A stretch of 64,000 nucleotides of DNA from Escherichia coli. GTDB lineage: Bacteria; Pseudomonadota; Gammaproteobacteria; Enterobacterales; Enterobacteriaceae. The position numbers and the translations under genes were made by a program. The stretch lies in the NCBI RefSeq assembly GCF_016026235.1, contig NZ_CP065613.1; one strand, given 5' to 3'. Below the pieces are notes generated by a model that saw only the letters and a program-made list of their open reading frames with translations, did not search any database and was not told the DNA's origin. Shown in pieces: positions 1,385-48,175 of this stretch; position 1 is the first letter of the stretch, and every line of letters starts with the position of its first letter.

Positions 1385-1463
1385 GAATTGACTGGAATTT
1401 GGGTTTCGAGGCTCTTTGTGCTAAACTGGCCCGCCGAATGTATAGTACACTTCGGTTGGATAG

Positions 1464-2402
<939 letters not shown>

Positions 2403-36967: not shown

Positions 36968-37321
36968 TTAACTCTGAAGCATAGCGGCACGACAGGCGTT
37001 CCAGCCTCTCACCTCTGCAATAGCGGCAACAGCATCAACCGCGTACATGCTAAGAGGATTAGGCATTGGTTTTTCTTCCGGTACTATTGGCGCTGGAGGG
37101 GCGGCGTATACTTCAATTATCCCATTATCAATAGGCCAATCCCCATCCTTGATGTAATCACTTGTGCCATCGACCTGCTGTTCTGCAATGTGGAAAGCAC
37201 CTATCGGCTCTGCTGTCAGCGATGCCAGAGCAATTTCATAAGCACGGCGTTCAACATTGTCTCGCACATCCAAACTGCTGATACGCTCTTTGATTTCTTT
37301 AATCAGTTCTTTGTCGTTCAC
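36968..37321 (-). CDS. Hypothetical prophage protein (DUF551-like)
   Basis: 117 aa ORF. Confidence 0.4.
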   Translation of the reverse strand: MNDKELIKEIKERISSLDVRDNVERRAYEIALASLTAEPIGAFHIAEQQVDGTSDYIKDGDWPIDNGIIEVYAAPPAPIVPEEKPMPNPLSMYAVDAVAAIAEVRGWNACRAAMLQS

Positions 37322-37393
37322 TTATGCCTCCGATTCCCGGATGTCACCCAAATCAACGCTACAATGCCAACCAGTGCAACGAGCGCAAAACTA

Positions 37394-37918
37394 TCAAGCA
37401 TCTCCAACCTCTTTAACGGTAACTGTCTGTGCCTCCAGTTCTGCTATGCGCTTTTCTGAGGCTTCAAGTAACGCCTGCTTATCGCGTAGCGCTTCTTCCA
37501 GTTCAGCAACATGGCATTCACTATCAATAAGGTTGTTCTCTGCTGCTTCCAGCTCAACACGCAACTTCCCTACCGTTAGCGCAATTTCCTCGTTCTCCTG
37601 ATCGCGGCTTTTGATGTATTGCAGGTTTCTTTCCCGTTCATCCAGTAGTGCCAGCGCAACATTTGGATTAAAAGCAGCAATAAATTCAGCGTTTGCATAA
37701 GCCTGAACATCTGTTTCAACCAGGCAGTTAACATGACATTCCGCAATCACACCACCGGGTTCTCCTTTCCATTTTTGACAAACAAAAACTCCTGTTAAAT
37801 TGCCGTGCTGGTTAACAGATGTATGCCCTACGATGTAGCTCCCTTTAGTTGCCTGCTCTGCCGCCTCACGCAGTGCCTGATAGTCAATCTTGCTCACTGG
37901 TTGCCTCCTTTGCGCCAC
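37394..37918 (-). CDS. Ea22-like early-left protein
   Basis: 174 aa with C-terminal coiled coil; DNA in 37440-37640 resembles the lambda ea22 region as recalled. Confidence 0.55.
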
Positions 37919-38071
37919 ATCGCATTCAGATATTTGTTGTCATTAACAGAACCGAAACTCTTTCTCTTAAGCAATTCCTCTCTCGATGGCATTGGCTTTA
38001 CGCGTTGGCGAATAATCATTTCTGCCGGAAGAATGCCGGGATTGTATGCAAGTCCTCTCATGGTAAATTCC

Positions 38072-38368
38072 TCAGTCATTACTGGTAGCGCCATAGCGTG
38101 AGCGGTAATTACGCAGGCGCGGGTCGATATATTCAGGGAATTTGTCTATTGTCGCTTTTCGCAACGGTCTCATTGCTGTTTCGTTTGTTCGGTCCTTCTC
38201 CTGTTTTAGCGCGAGTTGTATATCGCGTCGGTACATCCGTTCTGCTTTTGTTTCTGGTTTCAGAGCAAGAAACGCGTCGAAATTGTTTTTGATATTTTCC
38301 AGCACCTCCGCCTTGGAGCTACCGGAGCAGTTGCGCGGGTCATCCGCACCATACAGAGGCGCTGGCAT
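38072..38368 (-). CDS. Hypothetical prophage protein
   Basis: 98 aa ORF. Confidence 0.4.
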
Positions 38369-38391
38369 AATGGGAGCCTTATTTTCAGTAA

Positions 38392-38979
38392 TCAGAAAGG
38401 AGGGTAATCGTTCTGGCTGTAACCATAATCATCTGCATGATTATGGCTTACGTTTTTAGAGCGATTGTCTTTATCTTTGAGGCTGCCAACCATGTTGGCG
38501 ATAGTTTCTGGTTGCTTGCCTTCCGCCTTTTCTTTAAGGGTTTGACCTGTTTGTGCAATAAACGGGATGCGTATTTCCATCTGGTAGCTGTCTGCGCCAG
38601 TCTTTTTGTTTGTGGTTAATACTTTCTGGAGCACTAACCCGATTTTCTTTCCATGAAATTCAGGAGCAACAAATTTACTGGCGGAAACCATATGTTGCGT
38701 TAACTGCTTAATCCCAACACACCCCATCATGGCATGAACGACGTTTGCACCAAACTTGTTTTCCGTTCCGTCATTTTTCTGAACACAAACGCTAAGATAT
38801 TGGATTTTACGTCCGTCGTCGGATTCGCCAGAAAGCTCAATAAATTTTGCGCCTTTTTCTGATTGCTTTAGTTCTGCTTCAGTAATGGTAATGATATGAG
38901 CGCCAGTTTCGTTAATAAAACCACCTTGCCCTGCGGTCAGTGCTGCTTCTTCGTTATAAGTAAAAATCACGTTGCTCAT
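38392..38979 (-). CDS. DUF669-like protein (putative ssDNA-binding partner of Sak4-type recombinases)
   Basis: 195 aa ORF immediately downstream of and overlapping the AAA ATPase gene. Confidence 0.45.
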   Translation of the reverse strand: MSNVIFTYNEEAALTAGQGGFINETGAHIITITEAELKQSEKGAKFIELSGESDDGRKIQYLSVCVQKNDGTENKFGANVVHAMMGCVGIKQLTQHMVSASKFVAPEFHGKKIGLVLQKVLTTNKKTGADSYQMEIRIPFIAQTGQTLKEKAEGKQPETIANMVGSLKDKDNRSKNVSHNHADDYGYSQNDYPPF

Positions 38980-39656
38980 GCGGCGTTTTCCTTAATTTGA
39001 TGAACATTATTGATGCCGTAGTAATCACAAACAGTGGCATCGACGAAAGAGAGATCGTTATCAATCTCATTGGAGTCAAACATTCCCATTGGGGATTTAA
39101 CAGTGTCTGCACCGTTGTTTTTCGTGGTGAAAAAGAACTGGTCATCACGGGTAAGGGTGCGAAGAACTATAGTAAACATGCCTTCGACAGTGATTTTCTC
39201 GTCCAGCATTTTTCCTATAGTTTTCATTTTCACGCGCCCCATAGGGGTTTCTTCGGTGTGCGCAAGAAAATAGACTCTCAGGTCATCTGGCGCATCCTGT
39301 GCAGCCTTAATCACCTCCCATGCGTGGCGGCCTATCTCAGTAAATTTATCAAACGATTTTTCTTCTGAGCGGCGCATAAACTCATTGCTCATCACATACT
39401 GGAAGTCATCAACAATAACGATTCTTTTCCCGTATTCGTGAGCACGCTTAATTACGGCAACTATTACGCCCCATTTATCAGTGGTAACTACGGTTCCTTT
39501 TTTTGCTCTGGCATCCCATGCCAGCCAGTCTTTTGATTTAAATGGCAGCGGCTTGCCTATTGGTTTTATAAGTATTGCTTCCTCTGGATTGATATTTCTC
39601 ATGCTGGTTGATTTTCCGGTGCCAGATTCACCGAGTATTAATGTCGCAGTTCCCAT
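38976..39656 (-). CDS. Sak4-like RecA-fold ATPase (phage recombination/annealing protein)
   Basis: 226 aa with Walker A ILGESGTGKST and Walker B-like IVIVDDF; occupies the position of lambda exo/bet. Confidence 0.6.
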   Translation of the reverse strand: MGTATLILGESGTGKSTSMRNINPEEAILIKPIGKPLPFKSKDWLAWDARAKKGTVVTTDKWGVIVAVIKRAHEYGKRIVIVDDFQYVMSNEFMRRSEEKSFDKFTEIGRHAWEVIKAAQDAPDDLRVYFLAHTEETPMGRVKMKTIGKMLDEKITVEGMFTIVLRTLTRDDQFFFTTKNNGADTVKSPMGMFDSNEIDNDLSFVDATVCDYYGINNVHQIKENAA

Positions 39657-39664
39657 AATTTGCC

Positions 39665-39865
39665 TCAGAATGGTAATTCGGATGGGGTGGAAAGAAATTC
39701 GCGCTCATTCATGCGCTCTCTTTGCGCCTGCCATAAGCAAAGTTGTTTCTTTGATTTATCTCCCGCTTTACGCCAGTAACGAGCCTCAGCAATGTGATAC
39801 TCTCTTTTTAATCGACTTAACTCTGGGGTTTTCGCCAGTTCTACCGGAATCATTTTGACCTCCAT
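39665..39865 (-). CDS. Hypothetical small prophage protein
   Basis: 66 aa ORF. Confidence 0.35.
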   Translation of the reverse strand: MEVKMIPVELAKTPELSRLKREYHIAEARYWRKAGDKSKKQLCLWQAQRERMNEREFLSTPSELPF

Positions 39866-39948
39866 TTTTTATAAGCGTCGACGGCTTCACGAAACATCTT
39901 TTCATCGCCAATAAAAGTGGCGATAGTGAATTTAGTCTGGATAGCCAT
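39850..39948 (-). pseudogene. kil: kil remnant (host-killing FtsZ inhibitor), codons 6 onward; codons 1-5 (MDQTL) lie at 41216-41230 on the far side of the IS600-like element
   Basis: MAIQTKFTIATFIGDEKMFREAVDAYKKW... matches lambda Kil from residue 6; the ATA target duplication rejoins to give MDQTLMAIQTKF. Confidence 0.75.
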
Positions 39949-39992
39949 ATGAGGTGTACTGGCAATAGCGGACACTACCATTTGTTCTTTTT

Positions 39993-40811
39993 TTAAGCAG
40001 CCATCTGATGATATTTTTCCCTGAAGGCTGCCGGGGAGATATTCCCCAGACGAGAGTGACGACGCTGACGATTGTAGAAAATCTCAATGTATTCCCGTAT
40101 TACTGAGATGGCCTCATTCCGGCTCTTAAAACGATAGTGGCTCAGGCTCTCATTTTTCAGCGTTCCCCAGAAGCTTTCCATCGGAGCGTTGTCGTAACAG
40201 TTACCTTTACGCGACATTGATGTTTTCAGACCAGACTGCTCCTGTATGACCCGGTAATCGTATGCGCAGTACTGTGAACCTCGATCGGAGTGGTGGATTA
40301 GCCCGGCAGGTGGGCGCTGGCTCCTGAGCGCCATAAACAGGGCTTTACCTGTCAGCTCTTTTGTCATGCGCTCTCCCATGGCGTAGCCGACAATTTCGCA
40401 CGTATAAACATCTTTGATGCCAGCGAGGTACAACCATCCCTCCTGTGTGGCAACATACGTCAGGTCCGCCACCCAGACCTGATTTGGTGCTGTAGGAGCG
40501 AACGTCTGGTTCAGCAGATTTGGCGCAACTGGCAGATTGTGGTTCGAGTTCGTAGTCGCTCTGAACTTGCGTTTCTGCTTACAGCGTAGCCTTAGCTCCT
40601 TACGAAGACGTGCCAGTCGGTCACGACCAACGATGATGCCATTCTCTGCCAGCTCCGTCTGGAGCCGCCGGGTTCCATATGTTTCGCGAGTGCGGATATG
40701 TGCCACCTTAATCTCCAGTTTTAGCCGCTCATCACTTTGTTTTCTGTCTGAGGGTTCATGCTGTACCCAGTTGTAATAACCGCTCCTGGATACACCAAAT
40801 ACCCGACACAT
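39993..40811 (-). CDS. IS3-family transposase OrfB (DDE)
   Basis: 272 aa rve-domain ORF. Confidence 0.85.
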   Translation of the reverse strand: MCRVFGVSRSGYYNWVQHEPSDRKQSDERLKLEIKVAHIRTRETYGTRRLQTELAENGIIVGRDRLARLRKELRLRCKQKRKFRATTNSNHNLPVAPNLLNQTFAPTAPNQVWVADLTYVATQEGWLYLAGIKDVYTCEIVGYAMGERMTKELTGKALFMALRSQRPPAGLIHHSDRGSQYCAYDYRVIQEQSGLKTSMSRKGNCYDNAPMESFWGTLKNESLSHYRFKSRNEAISVIREYIEIFYNRQRRHSRLGNISPAAFREKYHQMAA

Positions 40812-40846
40812 CGCTTCAATGGGAAATTGTTGTCGCCATTGTTCGA

Positions 40847-41149
40847 TTAACGCGTATTTTTCAGCGACTCCTGTGCAAAATACGCTGTTGCTTTTTTTAA
40901 TATATCTCGCTCAAGGCGAGCTTCATTTAACGCCTTACGCAGTTGCAGAATTTCAGATTCCAGTTCAGCCACCGTGCGGGAACCAGGAGTACCGAGCCCT
41001 TTTCTGGCGGCGGTAACCCATTGTCCTAAAGTGCCTTCAGGAAGGGATAATCGGGAAGCGCCTTCACTGATCGAAAGTTGATTTTCAAGAACCGTTCTGA
41101 CAGCTTCGGCTTTGAACTCTTTAGAGTAACGTTGGGTTTTTCTGCTCAT
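40847..41149 (-). CDS. IS3-family transposase OrfA (HTH)
   Basis: 100 aa MSRKTQRYSKEFKAEAVRTVLENQLSISEGASRL... Confidence 0.85.
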   Translation of the reverse strand: MSRKTQRYSKEFKAEAVRTVLENQLSISEGASRLSLPEGTLGQWVTAARKGLGTPGSRTVAELESEILQLRKALNEARLERDILKKATAYFAQESLKNTR

Positions 41150-41210
41150 TATTAGCTCCTTCTGATGCCATTCTATTTCAGGAAGGAGTGTCCGTTAAAC
41201 TCAGGCTACC

Positions 41211-41363
41211 TCAATAAGTGTTTGATCCATTCTTTGGGACTCCTGGCTGATTAAGTATGTCGATAAGGCGTTTCCATCCGTCACGTAATTTACGGGTGAT
41301 TCGTTCAAGTAAAGATTCGGAAGGGCAGCCAGCAACAGGCCACCCTGCAATGGCATATTGCAT
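41211..41363 (-). CDS. cIII: cIII (FtsH inhibitor), last 4 codons replaced by a stop inside the IS inverted repeat
   Basis: MQYAIAGWPVAGCPSESLLERITRKLRDGWKRLIDILNQPGVPKNGSNTY-stop; lambda cIII continues GYPD. Confidence 0.8.
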   Translation of the reverse strand: MQYAIAGWPVAGCPSESLLERITRKLRDGWKRLIDILNQPGVPKNGSNTY

Positions 41364-41462
41364 GGTGTGCTCCTTATTTACGCTTTAAATTGCTCCGTGT
41401 ATTCACTCGTTGGAATGAATACACAGTGCAGTGTTTATTCTGTTGTTTATGCCAAAATAATT

Positions 41463-41705
41463 TTAATCAGCAATAAACTCTTCTGGTAATTTATCAACTA
41501 TTTGATGACTTATTATCAGCCATTTGCCATCCTTCGTTTCGTATGCATATTTCTGGTCTTTTATCATCATGTGTTCAGCTACTGCCTTAACTGCCTGTTC
41601 GGTTACATCTTCTTTCTTTCCCACCCACATTCCTTTTTCAGTGTTTAATGTTCCTTGAAAAATACGACCACTTAATGGGCTTGCGCCCATAGTTTTTACT
41701 CTCAT
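41463..41705 (-). CDS. Hypothetical early-left protein between N and cIII
   Basis: 80 aa ORF. Confidence 0.4.
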   Translation of the reverse strand: MRVKTMGASPLSGRIFQGTLNTEKGMWVGKKEDVTEQAVKAVAEHMMIKDQKYAYETKDGKWLIISHQIVDKLPEEFIAD

Positions 41706-41715
41706 GTATCAGTCC

Positions 41716-42042
41716 TCAAATAAGTGGTTTGCTGCCTAATTTCATTTTCTGGCGACCAACACAAGTCACACCCATTTCACTGCGTGGCTTGCTGTACCAT
41801 GTGCGCTGATTCTTGCGCTCAATACGTTGCAGGTTGCTTTCAATCTGTTCGTGGTATTCAGCCAGCACTGTAAGGTCTATCGGATTCAGCGCGCTTTCTA
41901 CTCGTGATTTCGGTTTGCGATTCAGCGAGAGAATAGGGCGGTTAACTGGTTTTGCGCTTACCCCAACCAACAGGGGATTTGCTGCTTTCCATTGAGCCTG
42001 TTTCTCTGCGCGACGTTCGCGGCGGCGTGTTTGTGCATCCAT
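41716..42042 (-). CDS. N: Antitermination protein N (lambda-type)
   Basis: 107 aa MDAQTRRRERRAEKQAQWKAANPLLVGVSAKPVNRPILSL... with arginine-rich motif; the ORF track adds 30 upstream codons. Confidence 0.9.
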   Translation of the reverse strand: MDAQTRRRERRAEKQAQWKAANPLLVGVSAKPVNRPILSLNRKPKSRVESALNPIDLTVLAEYHEQIESNLQRIERKNQRTWYSKPRSEMGVTCVGRQKMKLGSKPLI

Positions 42043-42152
42043 CTGGATTCTCCTGTCAGTTAGCTTTGAGTAACGCGCCGTGATGCTTATCTCCACGGTT
42101 GCTGTCTTGCAGCTGCATTTCGCGCTACTCAAAGCTTTCTGCTTTGAATGCT

Positions 42153-42184
42153 GCCCTTCTTCAGGGCTTAATTTTTAAGAGCAT
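42153..42184 (-). promoter_or_regulatory. nutL (boxB hairpin GCCCTGAAGAAGGGC plus adjacent boxA-like element)
   Basis: On the bottom strand ...gctcttaaaaattaagccctgaagaagggcagc... upstream of N. Confidence 0.75.
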
Positions 42185-42342
42185 CACCTTCAATGGTGGT
42201 CAGTGCGTCCTGCTGATGGCTAAATAGTACGATTTGTACTTTATCGAGTCAATACAAAATGTTCTAAATATAATTAGTTTCTTATAACGCTTTGTATTTA
42301 ATGGGTTTATATTTTGGAAAAAGAAAACCCGACACTAAGGTC

Positions 42343-43768
42343 TAATGCCGATCAGTTAAGGATCAGTTGACCGATCCAGTGGCTGTGTAAGAATCCGGAA
42401 ACGCTCACTTGTTTCCGGATTTTTTTATGCACATTGGACAGGCTCTTGATCTGGTATCCCGTTACGATTCTCTGCGTAACCCACTGACTTCTCTGGGGGA
42501 TTACCTCGACCCCGAACTCATCTCTCGTTGCCTTGCCGAATCAGGTACTGTAACGCTACGCAAGCGCCGTCTTCCCCTCGAAATGATGGTCTGGTGTATT
42601 GTTGGCATGGCGCTTGAGCGTAAAGAACCTCTTCACCAGATTGTGAATCGCCTGGACATCATGCTGCCGGGCAATCGCCCCTTCGTTGCCCCCAGTGCCG
42701 TTATTCAGGCCCGCCAGCGCCTGGGAAGTGAGGCTGTCCGCCGCGTGTTCACGAAAACAGCGCAGCTCTGGCATAACGCCACGCCGCATCCGCACTGGTG
42801 CGGCCTGACCCTGCTGGCCATCGATGGTGTGTTCTGGCGCACACCGGATACACCAGAGAACGATGCAGCCTTCCCCCGCCAGACACATGCCGGGAACCCG
42901 GCGCTCTACCCGCAGGTCAAAATGGTCTGCCAGATGGAACTGACCAGCCATCTGCTGACGGCTGCAGCCTTCGGCACGATGAAGAACAGCGAAAATGAGC
43001 TTGCTGAGCAACTTATAGAACAAACCGGCGATAACACTCTGACGTTAATGGATAAAGGTTATTACTCACTGGGACTGTTAAATGCCTGGAGCCTGGCGGG
43101 AGAACACCGCCACTGGATGATACCTCTCAGAAAGGGAGCGCAATATGAAGAGCTCAGAAAACTGGGTAAAGGCGATCATCTGGTGAAGCTGAAAACCAGC
43201 CCGCAGGCACGAAAAAAGTGGCCGGGACTGGGAAATGAAGTGACAGCCCGCCTGCTGACCGTGACGCGCAAAGGAAAAGTCTGCCATCTGCTGACGTCGA
43301 TGACGGACGCCATGCGCTTCCCCGGAGGAGAAATGGCGGATCTGTACAGTCATCGCTGGGAAATCGAACTGGGATACAGGGAGATAAAACAGACGATGCA
43401 ACTGAGCAGGCTGACGCTGAGAAGTAAAAAGCCGGAGCTTGTGGAGCAAGAGCTGTGGGGTGTCTTACTGGCTTATAATCTGGTGAGATATCAGATGATT
43501 AAAATGGCGGAACATCTGAAAGGTTACTGGCCGAATCAACTGAGTTTCTCAGAATCATGCGGAATGGTGATGAGAATGCTGATGACATTGCAGGGCGCTT
43601 CACCGGGACGTATACCGGAGCTGATGCGCGATCTTGCAAGTATGGGACAACTTGTGAAATTACCGACGAGAAGGGGAAGGGCCTTCCCGAGAGTGGTAAA
43701 GGAGAGGCCCTGGAAATACCCCACAGCCCCGAAAAAGAGCCAGTCAGTTGCTTAACTGACTGGCATTA
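42343..43768 (+). mobile_element. IS4 (1426 bp) with 12-bp target duplication gacactaaggtc
   Basis: Terminal inverted repeats taatgccgatcagttaagga.../...ttaactgactggcatta; identical 12-mer at 42331-42342 and 43769-43780. Confidence 0.88.
42409..43755 (+). CDS. IS4 transposase
   Basis: 448 aa DDE transposase ORF filling the element. Confidence 0.88.
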
Positions 43769-43815
43769 GACACTAAGGTCGGGTTATTGTTGTGTGCTTT
43801 AGAGTAGTGAGGCTG

Positions 43816-44550
43816 TTAACTAAATGTCTCTTCAGGCCACTGGCTGGCGATAACTTTCCCCACAACGGAACAACTCTCATTGCATGGGATCATTGGGTAT
43901 TGTGGGTTTAGTGGCTGTAGAAACACCTGACCACTATCCCTGATCAGTTTCTTGAAAGTAAATTCATCACCACCAAGTCTGGCTATGCAGAAATCGCCGG
44001 GCTCAACAGCTTGCTCAGGGTCAACCAGAATTAACATCCCGTCAGGAAAACTGGGTTTGGAACCTGTTGGTGCGGTCATGGAATTACCTTCAACTTCAAG
44101 CCAAAACGCACAATCACTGGCTTTTTTGGTTGTGCTGACCCATCTCTCCGCATCACCTTTGGTAAAGGTTCTAAGCTCAGGCGAGAACATCCCGGCCTGA
44201 ACATGAGAAAAAACAGGGTACTCATATTGTTTTTTAACGGGGGCAGATGAGTATTCGCCAACAGGTGAAAATGTACCGTCGTGGTTGAATGAGACGTTAT
44301 CAATACCAAGGTATTTAAACACCACACCAATCTCGTCAAGAGATGGATGACGAGATCCGCGCAACCAGTGACCAATTCCACCCTGCGTCATACCAAGCTC
44401 TTCAGCTAACTTCTCTTGAGTTATGCCGAGCTCTTTCATTCTGGATCTAGCCAGTTCATACCATTTCATTTTCATATCCTTATTATTACGCTCTGTACTA
44501 AAACCATCCATGCACAAGATGTATTTTTTGTTTGCATTCCAAAAGTACAT
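43816..44550 (-). CDS. cI: CI-type prophage repressor (HTH_XRE N-domain plus S24 LexA-like C-domain)
   Basis: 244 aa; C-terminal half matches lambda cI ([34 protein letters not shown] ... [10 protein letters not shown]) while the N-terminal DNA-binding domain is unrelated to lambda cI. Confidence 0.85.
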
Positions 44551-44586
44551 ATCGTATTATTGTCTCATGGTTACTATGGAGGGCAT

Positions 44587-44802
44587 ATGAGCAACCTACG
44601 AAAATATCGAGAGTCACTGAATATCTCTCAAACAACACTTGCTAAGGCGGTTGGATGCACACAGGGAGCTATTGGGCATTGGGAATCTGGTCGTCGCTTC
44701 CCAGACCTTAAAACATGCCGCGCTCTTGTTGCATGCCTAAACAAGTTAGGCGCAAAAGTCAGTCTTGATGACGTGTTCCCTCCGGAACACAAAGCCGCTT
44801 AA
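44587..44802 (+). CDS. cro: Cro-like HTH repressor (non-lambda)
   Basis: 71 aa MSNLRKYRESLNISQTTLAKAVGCTQGAIGHWESGRR..., divergent from cI across a ~36 bp operator region. Confidence 0.75.
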   Translation: MSNLRKYRESLNISQTTLAKAVGCTQGAIGHWESGRRFPDLKTCRALVACLNKLGAKVSLDDVFPPEHKAA

Positions 44803-44921
44803 GACATTCCAGCTCTTACACATTCCAGCCCTGAAAAAGGGCATCCAATTAAACCACACCTATGGTGTATGCATTTATTTGCATACATTCAATCAATTGT
44901 TGTCTAAGGAAATACTTACAT

Positions 44922-45290
44922 ATGGTTCGTGCAAACAAACGCAACGAGGCTCTACGAATCGAGAGTGCGTTGCTTAACAAAATCGCAATGCTTGGAACTG
45001 AGAAGACAGCGGAAGCTGTGGGAGTTGATAAGTCGCAGATCAGCAGGTGGAAGAGGGACTGGATTCCAAAGTTCTCAATGCTGCTTGCTGTTCTTGAATG
45101 GGGCGTCGTTGACGACGATATGGCTCGATTGGCACGACAAGTTGCTTCGATTCTCACCAATAAAAACGCCCGGTGTGGCAAACCGAGCGTTCTGAACAAA
45201 TCCAGATGGAGTTCTGAGGTCATTACTGGATCTATCAACAGGAGTCATTATGACAAATACAGCAAAAATACTCAACTTCGGCAGAGGTAA
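44922..45290 (+). CDS. cII: cII transcriptional activator, C-terminus divergent from lambda (possible frameshift)
   Basis: Residues 1-80 match lambda cII (MVRANKRNEALRIESALLNKIAMLGTEKTAEAVGVDKSQISRWKRDW...); the lambda C-terminal EQIQMEF is encoded in another frame. Confidence 0.7.
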   Translation: MVRANKRNEALRIESALLNKIAMLGTEKTAEAVGVDKSQISRWKRDWIPKFSMLLAVLEWGVVDDDMARLARQVASILTNKNARCGKPSVLNKSRWSSEVITGSINRSHYDKYSKNTQLRQR

Positions 45291-46188
45291 CTTTGCCGGA
45301 CAGGAGCGTAATGTGGCAGATCTCGATGATGGTTACGCCAGATTATCAAATATGCTGCTTGAGGCTTATTCAGGCGCAGATCTGACCAAGCGACAGTTTA
45401 AAGTGCTGCTTGCCATTCTGCGTAAAACCTATGGGTGGAATAAACCAATGGACAGAATCACTGATTCTCAACTTAGCGAGTTGACAAAGTTACCTGTCAA
45501 ACGATGCAATGAAGCCAAGTTAGAACTCGTCAGAATGAATATTATCAAGCAGCAAGGCGGCATGTTTGGACCAAACAAAAACATCTCAGAATGGTGTATC
45601 CCTCAAAACGAGGGGGGTTCCCCTAAAATGAGGGATATCCCTCAAAACGAGGGAAAATCCCCTAAAACGAGGGATAAAACATCCCTCAAATTGGGGGATT
45701 GCTATCCCTCAAAACAGGGGGACACAAAAGACACTATTACAAAAGAAAAAAGAAAAGATTATTCGTCCGAGAATTCTGGCGAATCCTCTGACCAGCCAGA
45801 AAACGATCTTTCTGTGGTTAAACCGGATGCTGCAATTCAGAGCGGCAGCAAGTGGGGAACAGCAGAAGACCTGACCGCCGCAGAGTGGATGTTTGACATG
45901 GTGAAGACTATCGCGCCATCAGCCAGAAAACCGAATTTTGCTGGGTGGGCTAACGATATCCGCCTGATGCGTGAACGTGACGGACGTAACCACCGCGATA
46001 TGTGTGTGCTTTTCCGCTGGGCCTGCCAGGACAACTTCTGGTCCGGTAACGTGCTAAGTCCGGCCAAACTCCGCGACAAGTGGACCCAGCTCGAAATCAA
46101 CCGTAACAAGCAACAGGCAGGCGTGACAGCCAGCAAACCAAAACTCGACCTGACAAACACTGACTGGATTTACGGGGTGGATTTATGA
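45250..46188 (+). CDS. O: Replication initiator O (lambda-type)
   Basis: 312 aa, matches lambda O with a 13-aa insertion in the iteron-encoded segment. Confidence 0.9.
   Translation: MTNTAKILNFGRGNFAGQERNVADLDDGYARLSNMLLEAYSGADLTKRQFKVLLAILRKTYGWNKPMDRITDSQLSELTKLPVKRCNEAKLELVRMNIIKQQGGMFGPNKNISEWCIPQNEGGSPKMRDIPQNEGKSPKTRDKTSLKLGDCYPSKQGDTKDTITKEKRKDYSSENSGESSDQPENDLSVVKPDAAIQSGSKWGTAEDLTAAEWMFDMVKTIAPSARKPNFAGWANDIRLMRERDGRNHRDMCVLFRWACQDNFWSGNVLSPAKLRDKWTQLEINRNKQQAGVTASKPKLDLTNTDWIYGVDL
45598..45765 (+). promoter_or_regulatory. ori-lambda: six iteron-like 18-19 bp repeats plus AT-rich region, inside O
   Basis: atccctcaaaacgagggg / ttcccctaaaatgaggga / atccctcaaaacgaggga / atcccctaaaacgaggga / atccctcaaattggggga / atccctcaaaacaggggga then A-rich tract. 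Confidence 0.8.
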
Positions 46189-46886
46189 AAAACATCGCCG
46201 CACAGATGGTTAACTTTGACCGTGAGCAGATGCGTCGGATCGCCAACAACTTGCCGGAACAGTACGACGAAAAGCCGCAGGTACAGCAGGTAGCGCAGAT
46301 CATCAACGGTGTGTTCAGCCAGTTACTGGCAACTTTCCCGGCGAGCCTGGCTAACCGTGACCAGAACGAACTGAACGAAATCCGCCGCCAGTGGGTTCTG
46401 GCTTTCCGGGAAAACGGGATCACCACAATGGAACAGGTTAACGCAGGAATGCGCGTAGCCCGTCGGCAGAATCGACCATTCCTGCCATCACCCGGGCAGT
46501 TTGTCGCCTGGTGCCGGGAAGAAGCATCCGTTACCGCCGGGCTGCCAAACGCCAGCGAGCTGGTTGATATGGTTTACGAGTATTGCCGGAAGCGAGGCCT
46601 GTATCCGGATGCGGAGTCTTATCCGTGGAAATCAAACGCGCACTACTGGCTGGTTACCAACCTGTATCAGAACATGCGGGCCAATGCGCTGACTGACGCG
46701 GAATTACGACGCAAGGCTGCCGATGAACTGACCTGTATGACAGTGCGAATTAACCGTGGTGAGGCGATACCTGAACCAGTAAAACAACTTCCTGTCATGG
46801 GCGGTAGACCTCTAAATCGTGCACAGGCTCTGGCGAAGATCGTAGAAATTAAAGCTAAGTTCGGACTGAAAGGAGCCAGTGTATGA
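46185..46886 (+). CDS. P: Replication protein P (DnaB helicase loader)
   Basis: 233 aa matching lambda P (MKNIAAQMVNFDREQMRRIANN...). Confidence 0.9.
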   Translation: MKNIAAQMVNFDREQMRRIANNLPEQYDEKPQVQQVAQIINGVFSQLLATFPASLANRDQNELNEIRRQWVLAFRENGITTMEQVNAGMRVARRQNRPFLPSPGQFVAWCREEASVTAGLPNASELVDMVYEYCRKRGLYPDAESYPWKSNAHYWLVTNLYQNMRANALTDAELRRKAADELTCMTVRINRGEAIPEPVKQLPVMGGRPLNRAQALAKIVEIKAKFGLKGASV

Positions 46887-47173
46887 CGGGCAAAGAGGCA
46901 ATTATTCATTATCTGGAGACGCACAAGAGCTTCTGTGCGCCGGACGTTGCCGCGCTAACAGGTGCAACAGTAACCAGCATAAATCAGGCCGCGGCTAAAA
47001 TGGCACGGGCAGGTCTTCTGGTTATCGAAAGTAAGGTCTGGCGAACGGTGTATTACCGGTTCGCTACCAGAGAAGAACGGGAAGGAAAGGTGAGCACGAA
47101 CCTGATTTTTAAGGAGTGTCGCCAGAGTGCCGCGATGAAACGGGTATTGGCGGTATATGGAGTTAAAAGATGA
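46883..47173 (+). CDS. ren: Ren (Rex exclusion escape protein)
   Basis: 96 aa matching lambda Ren (MTGKEAIIHYLETHKSFCAPDVAALTG...). Confidence 0.85.
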   Translation: MTGKEAIIHYLETHKSFCAPDVAALTGATVTSINQAAAKMARAGLLVIESKVWRTVYYRFATREEREGKVSTNLIFKECRQSAAMKRVLAVYGVKR

Positions 47174-47243
47174 CCATCTACATCACTGAGCTTGTAACAG
47201 GCCTGCTGGTAATCGCAGGCCTTTTTATTTGGGGGAGAGGGAA

Positions 47244-47522
47244 GTGAACGATAGCTACCGACAGTTTGAAAACTGGTGGTCAAAAGACAAAAGCCAGTTC
47301 ACAGGAGACGATGAATTAAAAGAGTTTGCCTGGGTGATATGGCAGGCATCGCGCTCTGCTATTGAACTGGATATCGACTGGCCCGAATCGAATGACGACT
47401 TTTGGAAAGATGGTGAAGAAGGTGCTTATGCGATGGGTTATGAGGATGGGCGTGACAAAACGGTAATTGCAGTAATGAAAGCCATCAGGGCCGCAGGAAT
47501 CAAAGAAAAGAATTTCGATTAA
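47244..47522 (+). CDS. Hypothetical acidic prophage protein (GTG start assumed)
   Basis: ORF with upstream GGAGAGGG Shine-Dalgarno, inserted between ren and ninB. Confidence 0.4.
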   Translation: MNDSYRQFENWWSKDKSQFTGDDELKEFAWVIWQASRSAIELDIDWPESNDDFWKDGEEGAYAMGYEDGRDKTVIAVMKAIRAAGIKEKNFD

Positions 47523-47653
47523 GCAAATATCACTTCAATAAATCGCTTTTAAGGCATCACAATCGCTCTGTAGCGAGGTAAACGCGTGCAAGGTATTTAT
47601 ATAGCAGCGAGAATGAAAAATGCGTCAGAATGCGTTTGAGGAGGTTTTAAGAA

Positions 47654-47863
47654 ATGAGTTCGTTGACTGAGCTTGTCCGCGCCGACTTTCAGGAGAACAT
47701 TGGTCGTGCAAAGCGGTACTGGTCTGCTTCCAGACTTCCGACTGGCGAGAGACAGAAAACGCCCCTAAGCCACGGAGCTATCCGCGTGACCGCGTTCTTC
47801 GCCGGTTGGTTAAAATCGATAATGATTTTCAGTGTGACAGAATTATCCGGAGTCTGGATTTAA
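47654..47863 (+). CDS. Hypothetical small protein (moron candidate)
   Basis: 69 aa ORF with strong GAGGAGG Shine-Dalgarno 8 nt upstream. Confidence 0.45.
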   Translation: MSSLTELVRADFQENIGRAKRYWSASRLPTGERQKTPLSHGAIRVTAFFAGWLKSIMIFSVTELSGVWI

Positions 47864-47878
47864 AGTGAAGGAGTGAGC

Positions 47879-48175
47879 ATGAGCAAAGTATCACGAGGAA
47901 TGAAAATATCGCTTATTTTCATCCTTAATCCGCATCGTATCTTTTTGGCTTCAGCAGTATGGCTGTCATATTTTGTTTATTGGTTAGCAGATAAATTGGA
48001 TGATTTTGCGAAATGGCTTGAGAATTTTGCGAATGCGAGGTTTGAGTCATGGCCGCTTATCGGAGAGAGGATGTCTGACGAATTAAACCGGTATTACGCG
48101 GATAAGCGCAAGGAGAAGAGCAGGAGGGCAAGTGAAGCAATTATTCCTGCTTCGCAACGAAGCAATCAGAAATAA
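47879..48175 (+). CDS. Hypothetical small membrane protein (moron candidate)
   Basis: ~98 aa with one predicted TM helix (ISLIFILNPHRIFLASAVWLSYFVYWLA) and a basic C-terminus; AAGGAG Shine-Dalgarno. Confidence 0.45.
   Translation: MSKVSRGMKISLIFILNPHRIFLASAVWLSYFVYWLADKLDDFAKWLENFANARFESWPLIGERMSDELNRYYADKRKEKSRRASEAIIPASQRSNQK

Follow-up and report, generated by a model that had tools for sequence, protein, structure and literature searches.

A conserved stem-loop from the 5' flank of the PreS small RNA, joined to the cIII leader in an Escherichia coli prophage

The early-left operon and the hairpin ahead of cIII

The window, by which we mean the whole 64,000-nucleotide stretch of E. coli DNA analysed here, contains a decaying, IS-ridden prophage. 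The following features make up its early-left locus.

41211..41363, minus strand: cIII (PF02061), cut after codon 50 by IS600 and taking its stop codon from the IS end
41318..41376, minus strand: cIII translational control element (Rfam RF01804 Lambda_thermo, 88.5 bits, E 2.4e-21)
41463..41705, minus strand: 80-aa ORF encoding a DUF7446 protein (PF24233, E 5.6e-29)
41716..42042, minus strand: lambda-type antiterminator N (PF11438)
42153-42167: nutL boxB
42252-42224: pL-like promoter
39950-41213: IS600, 1264 bp, inserted in cIII after codon 50 with a 3-bp TAT target duplication
40847-41149, minus strand: IS600 orfA
39993-40811, minus strand: IS600 orfB
42409-43755: IS4-family transposase gene (NF033592, E 1.5e-90), just upstream of the pL-like promoter and nutL

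N, nutL boxB and the pL-like promoter all lie upstream on the same strand, which places the spacer ahead of cIII, with its hairpin, in an early-left transcript and bears out the pL context assigned to it in a preliminary description of this DNA. The N stop codon and the start of the DUF7446 gene are 10 nt apart, and the DUF7446 gene is the variable accessory gene that precedes the hairpin in this lineage. A promoter-like match (TTACCA-18-TAAAAT, 9/12) was also seen on the minus strand at 41460-41489, inside the 3' end of the DUF7446 gene and some 25 nt before the hairpin; lambda does not share it, and chance could account for it in this region. Insertion of IS600 has displaced the last five codons of cIII (YGYPD, then the stop) to 39949-39932, and the early-left operon has probably been cut off from its immunity region by the IS4-family element. 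Across 36000-48000 the best coverage by any complete E. coli genome is 52% or less; taken with IS600 and the IS4-family element, this suggests a Shigella-like genome rich in IS elements as the source, more than a typical E. coli.

The stop of the 80-aa ORF (41463) and the cIII ATG (41363) are separated by 99 nt, and this spacer harbours an inverted repeat, which is real and lies where it had first been noticed. Its parts are as follows.

41391..41430, minus strand: stem-loop of 14 bp, an A·A mismatch and 3 bp, from folding and covariation
41430->41413, minus strand: hairpin 5' arm, UGCACUGUGUAUUCAUUC
41412->41409, minus strand: hairpin loop, CAAC, 4 nt
41408->41391, minus strand: hairpin 3' arm, GAGUGAAUACACGGAGCA

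In the leftward RNA (pL sense, which is also the cIII sense) the hairpin reads UGC-A-CUGUGUAUUCAUUC / CAAC / GAGUGAAUACACGG-A-GCA. Counted from the loop outward, 14 contiguous pairs, two of them U·G, are followed by a 1x1 A·A mismatch and three further pairs. The perfect stem of about 9 bp given in the preliminary description is therefore correct as the Watson-Crick core and understates the full extent of the helix. Folding energy, one of the checks suggested there, predicts a stable structure: the isolated AU-rich hairpin folds with a ΔG of -21.8 kcal/mol against -6.5 ± 2.1 for dinucleotide shuffles (z = -7.4; 0/200 shuffles as good), and the complete 99-nt spacer with -27.9 kcal/mol (z = -5.6; 0/200 as good). 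The complementary plus strand is weaker, at -16.2 kcal/mol for the hairpin alone and z = -2.5 for the spacer. By length, the hairpin is among the top three short-loop inverted repeats of the 64-kb window.

None of the Rfam covariance models covers the window hairpin, and the only match nearby is RF01804; likewise, Rfam 15 searched in lambda and Salmonella phage SE16 holds no family for the hairpin or for PreS, the small RNA introduced below. The RF01804 element begins 14 nt 3' of the hairpin foot. The hairpin is thus outside that model (41318-41376), and it and the cIII thermoregulator are separate, adjacent cis-acting RNA structures of one mRNA.

Origin of the hairpin in the lambda PreS locus

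BLAST matches of the region to lambda and Stx phages fall into two pieces about 650 bp apart, the second of them just downstream of ral. Positions 41389-41457 of the window correspond to the lambda sequence immediately after ral, hairpin included, with one mismatch over about 70 nt. In lambda this spacer leads into PreS (LPR1), described as an Hfq-dependent sRNA between ral and ea10 that ends at the terminator tL2a (Silverman et al., bioRxiv 10.1101/2024.10.31.621285). The preprint reports a northern band of about 88 nt and a shorter form of about 68 nt.

The position of PreS +1 can be deduced from the primers P810, P969 and P1103 together with the numbering of Fig. S3E in the same preprint (bioRxiv 10.1101/2024.10.31.621285). 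The PreS cloning and T7 primers start GAGCAATGTCGC, and the primer for full deletion of PreS ends ...GAGTGAATACACG, which makes +1 the G of GAGCAAU. Counted from this G, the tL2a U-run ends after 88 nt, in agreement with the northern band; as it rests on preprint primers and a northern size, the assignment carries an uncertainty of a few nucleotides. The +1 G is the 14th nucleotide of the hairpin 3' arm, so that the mature PreS 5' end would sit on the foot of the stem-loop. The remaining features of the spacer can be named accordingly.

41431..41457, minus strand: conserved 5' flank, UUUUGGCAUAAACAACAGAAUAAACAC, homologous to lambda just downstream of ral
41389..41395, minus strand: GAGCAAU, the first 7 nt of lambda PreS/LPR1, with the +1-equivalent G at 41395
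41380..41388, minus strand: 9-nt junction filler, UUAAAGCGU, replacing about 124 nt

The 5' flank includes a GAAUAA(A/G)CAC block common to most upstream families. Homology to the lambda ral-PreS spacer stops 7 nt into PreS, and GAGCAAU, whose G, G and C pair with the upstream GCAC, is all that is left of PreS in the window. The PreS seed UUGUUCUGAUUAUUGG and tL2a are absent from the locus, and a search of the whole window that allowed up to 3 mismatches found no match to the seed. What the window holds is therefore a remnant of the PreS locus and not a PreS gene. In comparison with the lambda PreS locus, it shares the ral-to-PreS spacer with the hairpin and PreS +1 to +7 and differs in lacking the seed, the body and tL2a.

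Two further identities for the hairpin were considered and ruled out. Lambda does not carry it directly ahead of cIII, since the pre-cIII spacer of V00638 is different, and it is not tL2a, which the preprint gives as the PreS terminator (bioRxiv 10.1101/2024.10.31.621285). As delimited in the preprint, the sRNA does not include the hairpin itself, which goes undiscussed in the accessible text. Its sequence has been public since 1981 as part of lambda, and older papers may already mention it.

The DUF7446-bearing E. coli prophages have the order DUF7446, hairpin, PreS, tL2a, a second terminator-like hairpin and cIII. Measured against the nearest of these, the roughly 124 nt replaced in the window comprise the PreS body, tL2a and the second terminator hairpin; beyond the 9 unrelated nucleotides, homology resumes at the cIII Shine-Dalgarno. 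Sequence comparison thus shows two things that the preliminary description had missed. The hairpin is not native to the cIII leader, and what stands there is the 5' flank of the PreS locus, spared by a deletion-substitution that removed the PreS body, tL2a and the second terminator-like hairpin and joined the stem-loop to the cIII leader.

Every occurrence of the junction TTAAAGCGTAAATAAGGAGCACACC in IMG/VR (8/8 loci) is attached to the hairpin. It is present in 3/5,426 complete E. coli genomes, and no record of the phage collection carries it contiguously. Its occurrence in the fused form alone points to a single origin. Four different genes precede the junction in its various copies, together with several N types, and the operons concerned (N-x-cIII-kil) look intact in other respects.

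As a separate observation, the lambda sequence AAUAACAGAAUAA, which precedes the hairpin, can pair with the PreS seed over 13 bp with one bulge (-18.5 kcal/mol; locus L001, lambda V00638, 1545-1560 versus 1462-1475, minus strand), a duplex equalled by 0.6% of shuffles. This 'anti-seed' pairing was rejected as a general feature of the locus: in the window/majority variant and in five other upstream families it is no better than in shuffles, and it is probably fortuitous or specific to lambda.

Conservation and covariation of the stem-loop

We gathered related loci through a PreS 5' anchor, which returned 261 copies (47 unique 45-mers), 251 of them PreS-linked. Predicted folds place a hairpin at the same position in 261/261 copies. 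The upper stem comes in at least five unrelated types, namely GUGUAUUCAUUC, UAAUGACCAUU, UAAUGCGGAUUC, UAUAGC(A/U)GAUU and UUAUCGACUUUC, within GCAC...GAGC flanks that vary little or not at all and pair into a short lower stem involving PreS +1, +3 and +4. The loop lies 12-13 nt from PreS +1 in every stem type.

The alignment window contained 44 unique variants from lambdoid and P22-like phages. RNAalifold returned 12 pairs, nine of which show compensatory changes, and 98.7% of cells across the 44 variants are paired. Double-change cells numbered 133, against 40.9 ± 4.3 in shuffles (0/500), and the covariation score was 0.678, compared with 0.171 for shuffled alignments and at most 0.157 for slid registers. 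Because the rows of this alignment belong to few clades, the independent events amount in effect to about the five stem types plus several changes within types. Type A (lambda-type), with 93% column identity, gave no informative covariation by itself; the signal became informative once P22-like variants were included. In Salmonella phage SE16, for example, the corresponding position ahead of a diverged PreS-like RNA is taken by a hairpin with a wholly different sequence. The hairpin is a conserved structured RNA element whose pairs are kept by compensatory substitutions.

We also noted that the PreS-like RNA of P22-like phages (SE16, locus L142, 630-745, minus strand, and about 120 IMG/VR loci, L143-L262) has its own terminator and an altered seed, UUCUGGUUAAUCG versus UUCUGAUUAUUGG in lambda, which suggests different or shifted targets.

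The sense fold is the more stable in 38/44 variants, and the U·G pairs are located on the pL-sense strand. This stability of the sense strand speaks more for an RNA element of the pL transcript than for a palindrome in DNA. Taken with the homology to lambda, these comparisons show the element of the window to be an intact copy of the conserved stem-loop that flanks the 5' end of PreS in lambda and in many lambdoid and P22-like phages.

A candidate processing signal and its alternatives

No sigma-70-like promoter was found ahead of PreS in lambda, and the sequence upstream of the hairpin belongs to more than 10 unrelated families, leaving no conserved promoter. A promoter of its own for the RNA downstream of the hairpin was rejected on these grounds, and the PreS 5' end must then come from processing of read-through transcripts. 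The preliminary description had proposed that the hairpin is either a terminator or a processing site. The second of these is plausible and gains indirect support from a PreS +1 on the 3' foot of the stem, the lack of a promoter before it and a covarying stem at a fixed 12-13 nt.

We infer cleavage at the hairpin by analogy. The stem-loop would form in the pL transcript without terminating transcription and would be cut endonucleolytically at its 3' foot, between 41396 and 41395, most likely by RNase III as at intercistronic signals of the T7 R1.1 type. After such a cut the upstream N-DUF7446 message would end in the stem-loop, which would protect its 3' end, and a downstream RNA with a 5'-monophosphate would be freed. 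In lambda this RNA would be PreS, and in the window a cIII mRNA whose 32-nt leader starts with GAGCAAUUUAAAGCG.

The dimensions of the hairpin can be set against those of known substrates. The minimal helix of E. coli RNase III is 11 bp (Pertzev & Nicholson 2006, PMC1540722). As given in that paper, site 2 of R1.1[WC]/µR1.1 has 11 bp and a 2-nt overhang, and the 28-nt µR1.1 hairpin product consists of 11 bp, a 4-nt loop and a 2-nt 3' overhang, a geometry in which the cut on the 3' arm falls 13 nt from the loop. With 14 bp in the window and 10-12 bp, the minimal length, in types B-E, the upper stem together with the loop-to-+1 spacing fits the length rule for RNase III hairpins given there (PMC1540722). 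A GC or CG pair is described as inhibitory at positions 2 and 4 of the proximal box (PMC1540722); in the 11-bp register both positions are U-A, under a register and box numbering that we assigned ourselves. An in vivo rule reported by Altuvia et al. (2018, PMC6212723) is that the two pairs between the cuts include a G-C, and in the same self-assigned register a G-C and a U·G pair lie between the predicted cuts. The hairpin also has a U-A/U·G step that is a candidate 'distal box'-like element. The proximal-box pairs are not conserved between stem types, and below the proposed cut there is just a short helix of 1 bp, a mismatch and 2-3 bp. Natural RNase III substrates usually extend over about two helical turns.

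Compared with T7 R1.1 and µR1.1, the hairpin is likewise intercistronic in a phage early polycistronic RNA, has an upper helix of at least 11 bp closed by a tetraloop, places the proposed scissile bond 13 nt from the loop on the 3' arm beside a mismatch, and, in our self-assigned 11-bp register, has no GC pair at pb2/pb4. It differs in that the two share no sequence similarity, the lower stem of the window hairpin is much shorter and the cut is a predicted one. The expression of the neighbouring gene, cIII, is known to be subject to RNase III (Altuvia et al. 1987, as quoted in later papers), and in lambda the effect is cited there as binding without cleavage. Our searches for literature on lambda pL processing, tL2 and RNase III sites near ral/ea10 returned only the PreS preprint and a review, and none was found on lambda 5' ends in rnc+ versus rnc- cells.

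Weighing these points, we see about an even chance that the whole reading is correct, namely that the stem-loop is the conserved 5' flank of PreS acting as a non-terminating, T7 R1.1-like processing signal, orphaned in this prophage. The more specific proposal, that the covarying stem-loop is an RNase III signal that makes the PreS 5' end in lambda-like and P22-like phages and has been captured by cIII in the PreS-less lineage, is tentative, and the probabilities lean somewhat against it.

A role in processing or RNA stability that does not involve RNase III is a serious rival, if on present evidence a doubtful one. The hairpin could be cut by RNase E or another enzyme, act as a barrier to 3' exonucleases or insulate the downstream RNA from pairing with upstream sequence, and the same conservation, covariation and position data would fit. 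RNase E commonly generates Hfq-binding sRNAs derived from 3'UTRs and operons, the stems are near the lower size limit for RNase III, and the PreS form of about 68 nt points to other processing nearby. On the other hand, the +1 G is paired in the invariant lower stem and not in an AU-rich single strand, and the constant 12-13 nt from the loop better suits an enzyme that measures a helix.

It is also possible, albeit unlikely, that in this lineage the hairpin is purely a relic, which still forms and has had no role since PreS was lost, the deletion endpoint lying 3 nt beyond it. The rarity of the junction and its single fused form would agree with this, as would the disruption of cIII in the window. 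Stem-breaking substitutions occur in 2/10 orphan copies and 5/156 PreS-linked copies, a non-significant difference (Fisher p = 0.058) among copies that are not independent; the excess hints that the element may be dispensable without PreS, and as a sign of relaxed selection on the orphan copies it is suggestive only. Against a relic, the orphan module has come to stand behind four different upstream genes, in operons that are intact in other respects, and its stem is unbroken in 8/10 copies. Within this particular prophage the hairpin is probably idle, as cIII is split by IS600 and an IS4-family element lies just upstream of pL.

The other role first proposed, that of a transcription terminator in the N-antiterminated pL operon, is highly improbable, as is that of a pause site there. 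It would suit a very stable stem in an operon known to hold several terminators, and lambda does have terminator-like hairpins in the equivalent interval. However, the stem is followed by GGAGCAAUUUAAAGCG with no U-run, and a stem without a U-tract is not an intrinsic terminator. A terminator scan left the hairpin unflagged on both strands, and the same scan does report the three terminator-like hairpins of lambda, including tL2a and the pre-cIII hairpin. Moreover, in lambda and about 250 related loci PreS is made directly downstream, which needs read-through of the hairpin. The sites of the lambda tL2 cluster occupy the same operon interval between N and cIII and are GC-rich 8-bp stems with U-runs (-12.1 and -9.4 kcal/mol), whereas the window hairpin is AU-rich, has 14 bp and no U-run, and takes a position upstream of them. 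The true terminators, tL2a and the pre-cIII hairpin, are distinct sequences that are deleted here; indeed, no intrinsic-terminator-like hairpin was found between N and cIII on the minus strand (41364-42042), all three such sites of the lambda N-cIII interval being missing from the window.

A DNA-level palindrome serving as a protein-binding site, recombination hotspot or mosaic boundary, which the position of the hairpin exactly at the border between the hypervariable accessory-gene region and a conserved block might suggest, is least credible of all, given five unrelated stem sequences without a common protein-recognisable motif, strand-specific wobble pairs with the sense fold more stable in 38/44 variants, and a hairpin type that tracks neither N type nor upstream gene.

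For annotation, the hairpin should not be labelled a terminator or part of the cIII thermosensor. For the window itself the message is modest, a remnant of a known locus in a decaying prophage. If the RNase III proposal is true, cleavage by that enzyme would fix the 5' end of the cIII mRNA and thereby its translation and stability, all within an early-left operon in which none of the three intrinsic-terminator-like sites between N and cIII is left. In intact relatives with this terminator-less arrangement, cIII expression might lean less on N antitermination. In its accessible text the preprint (bioRxiv 10.1101/2024.10.31.621285) does not say how PreS is released from the pL transcript, and the literature searched yielded no description of an RNase III step in its biogenesis. 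A hairpin that strictly co-occurs with PreS, covaries and keeps a fixed distance to +1 provides a concrete, testable hypothesis for that biogenesis. Its five interchangeable stem types amount to a natural series of compensatory mutations, and they are material for an Rfam-style model of the PreS locus, PreS being absent from Rfam 15.
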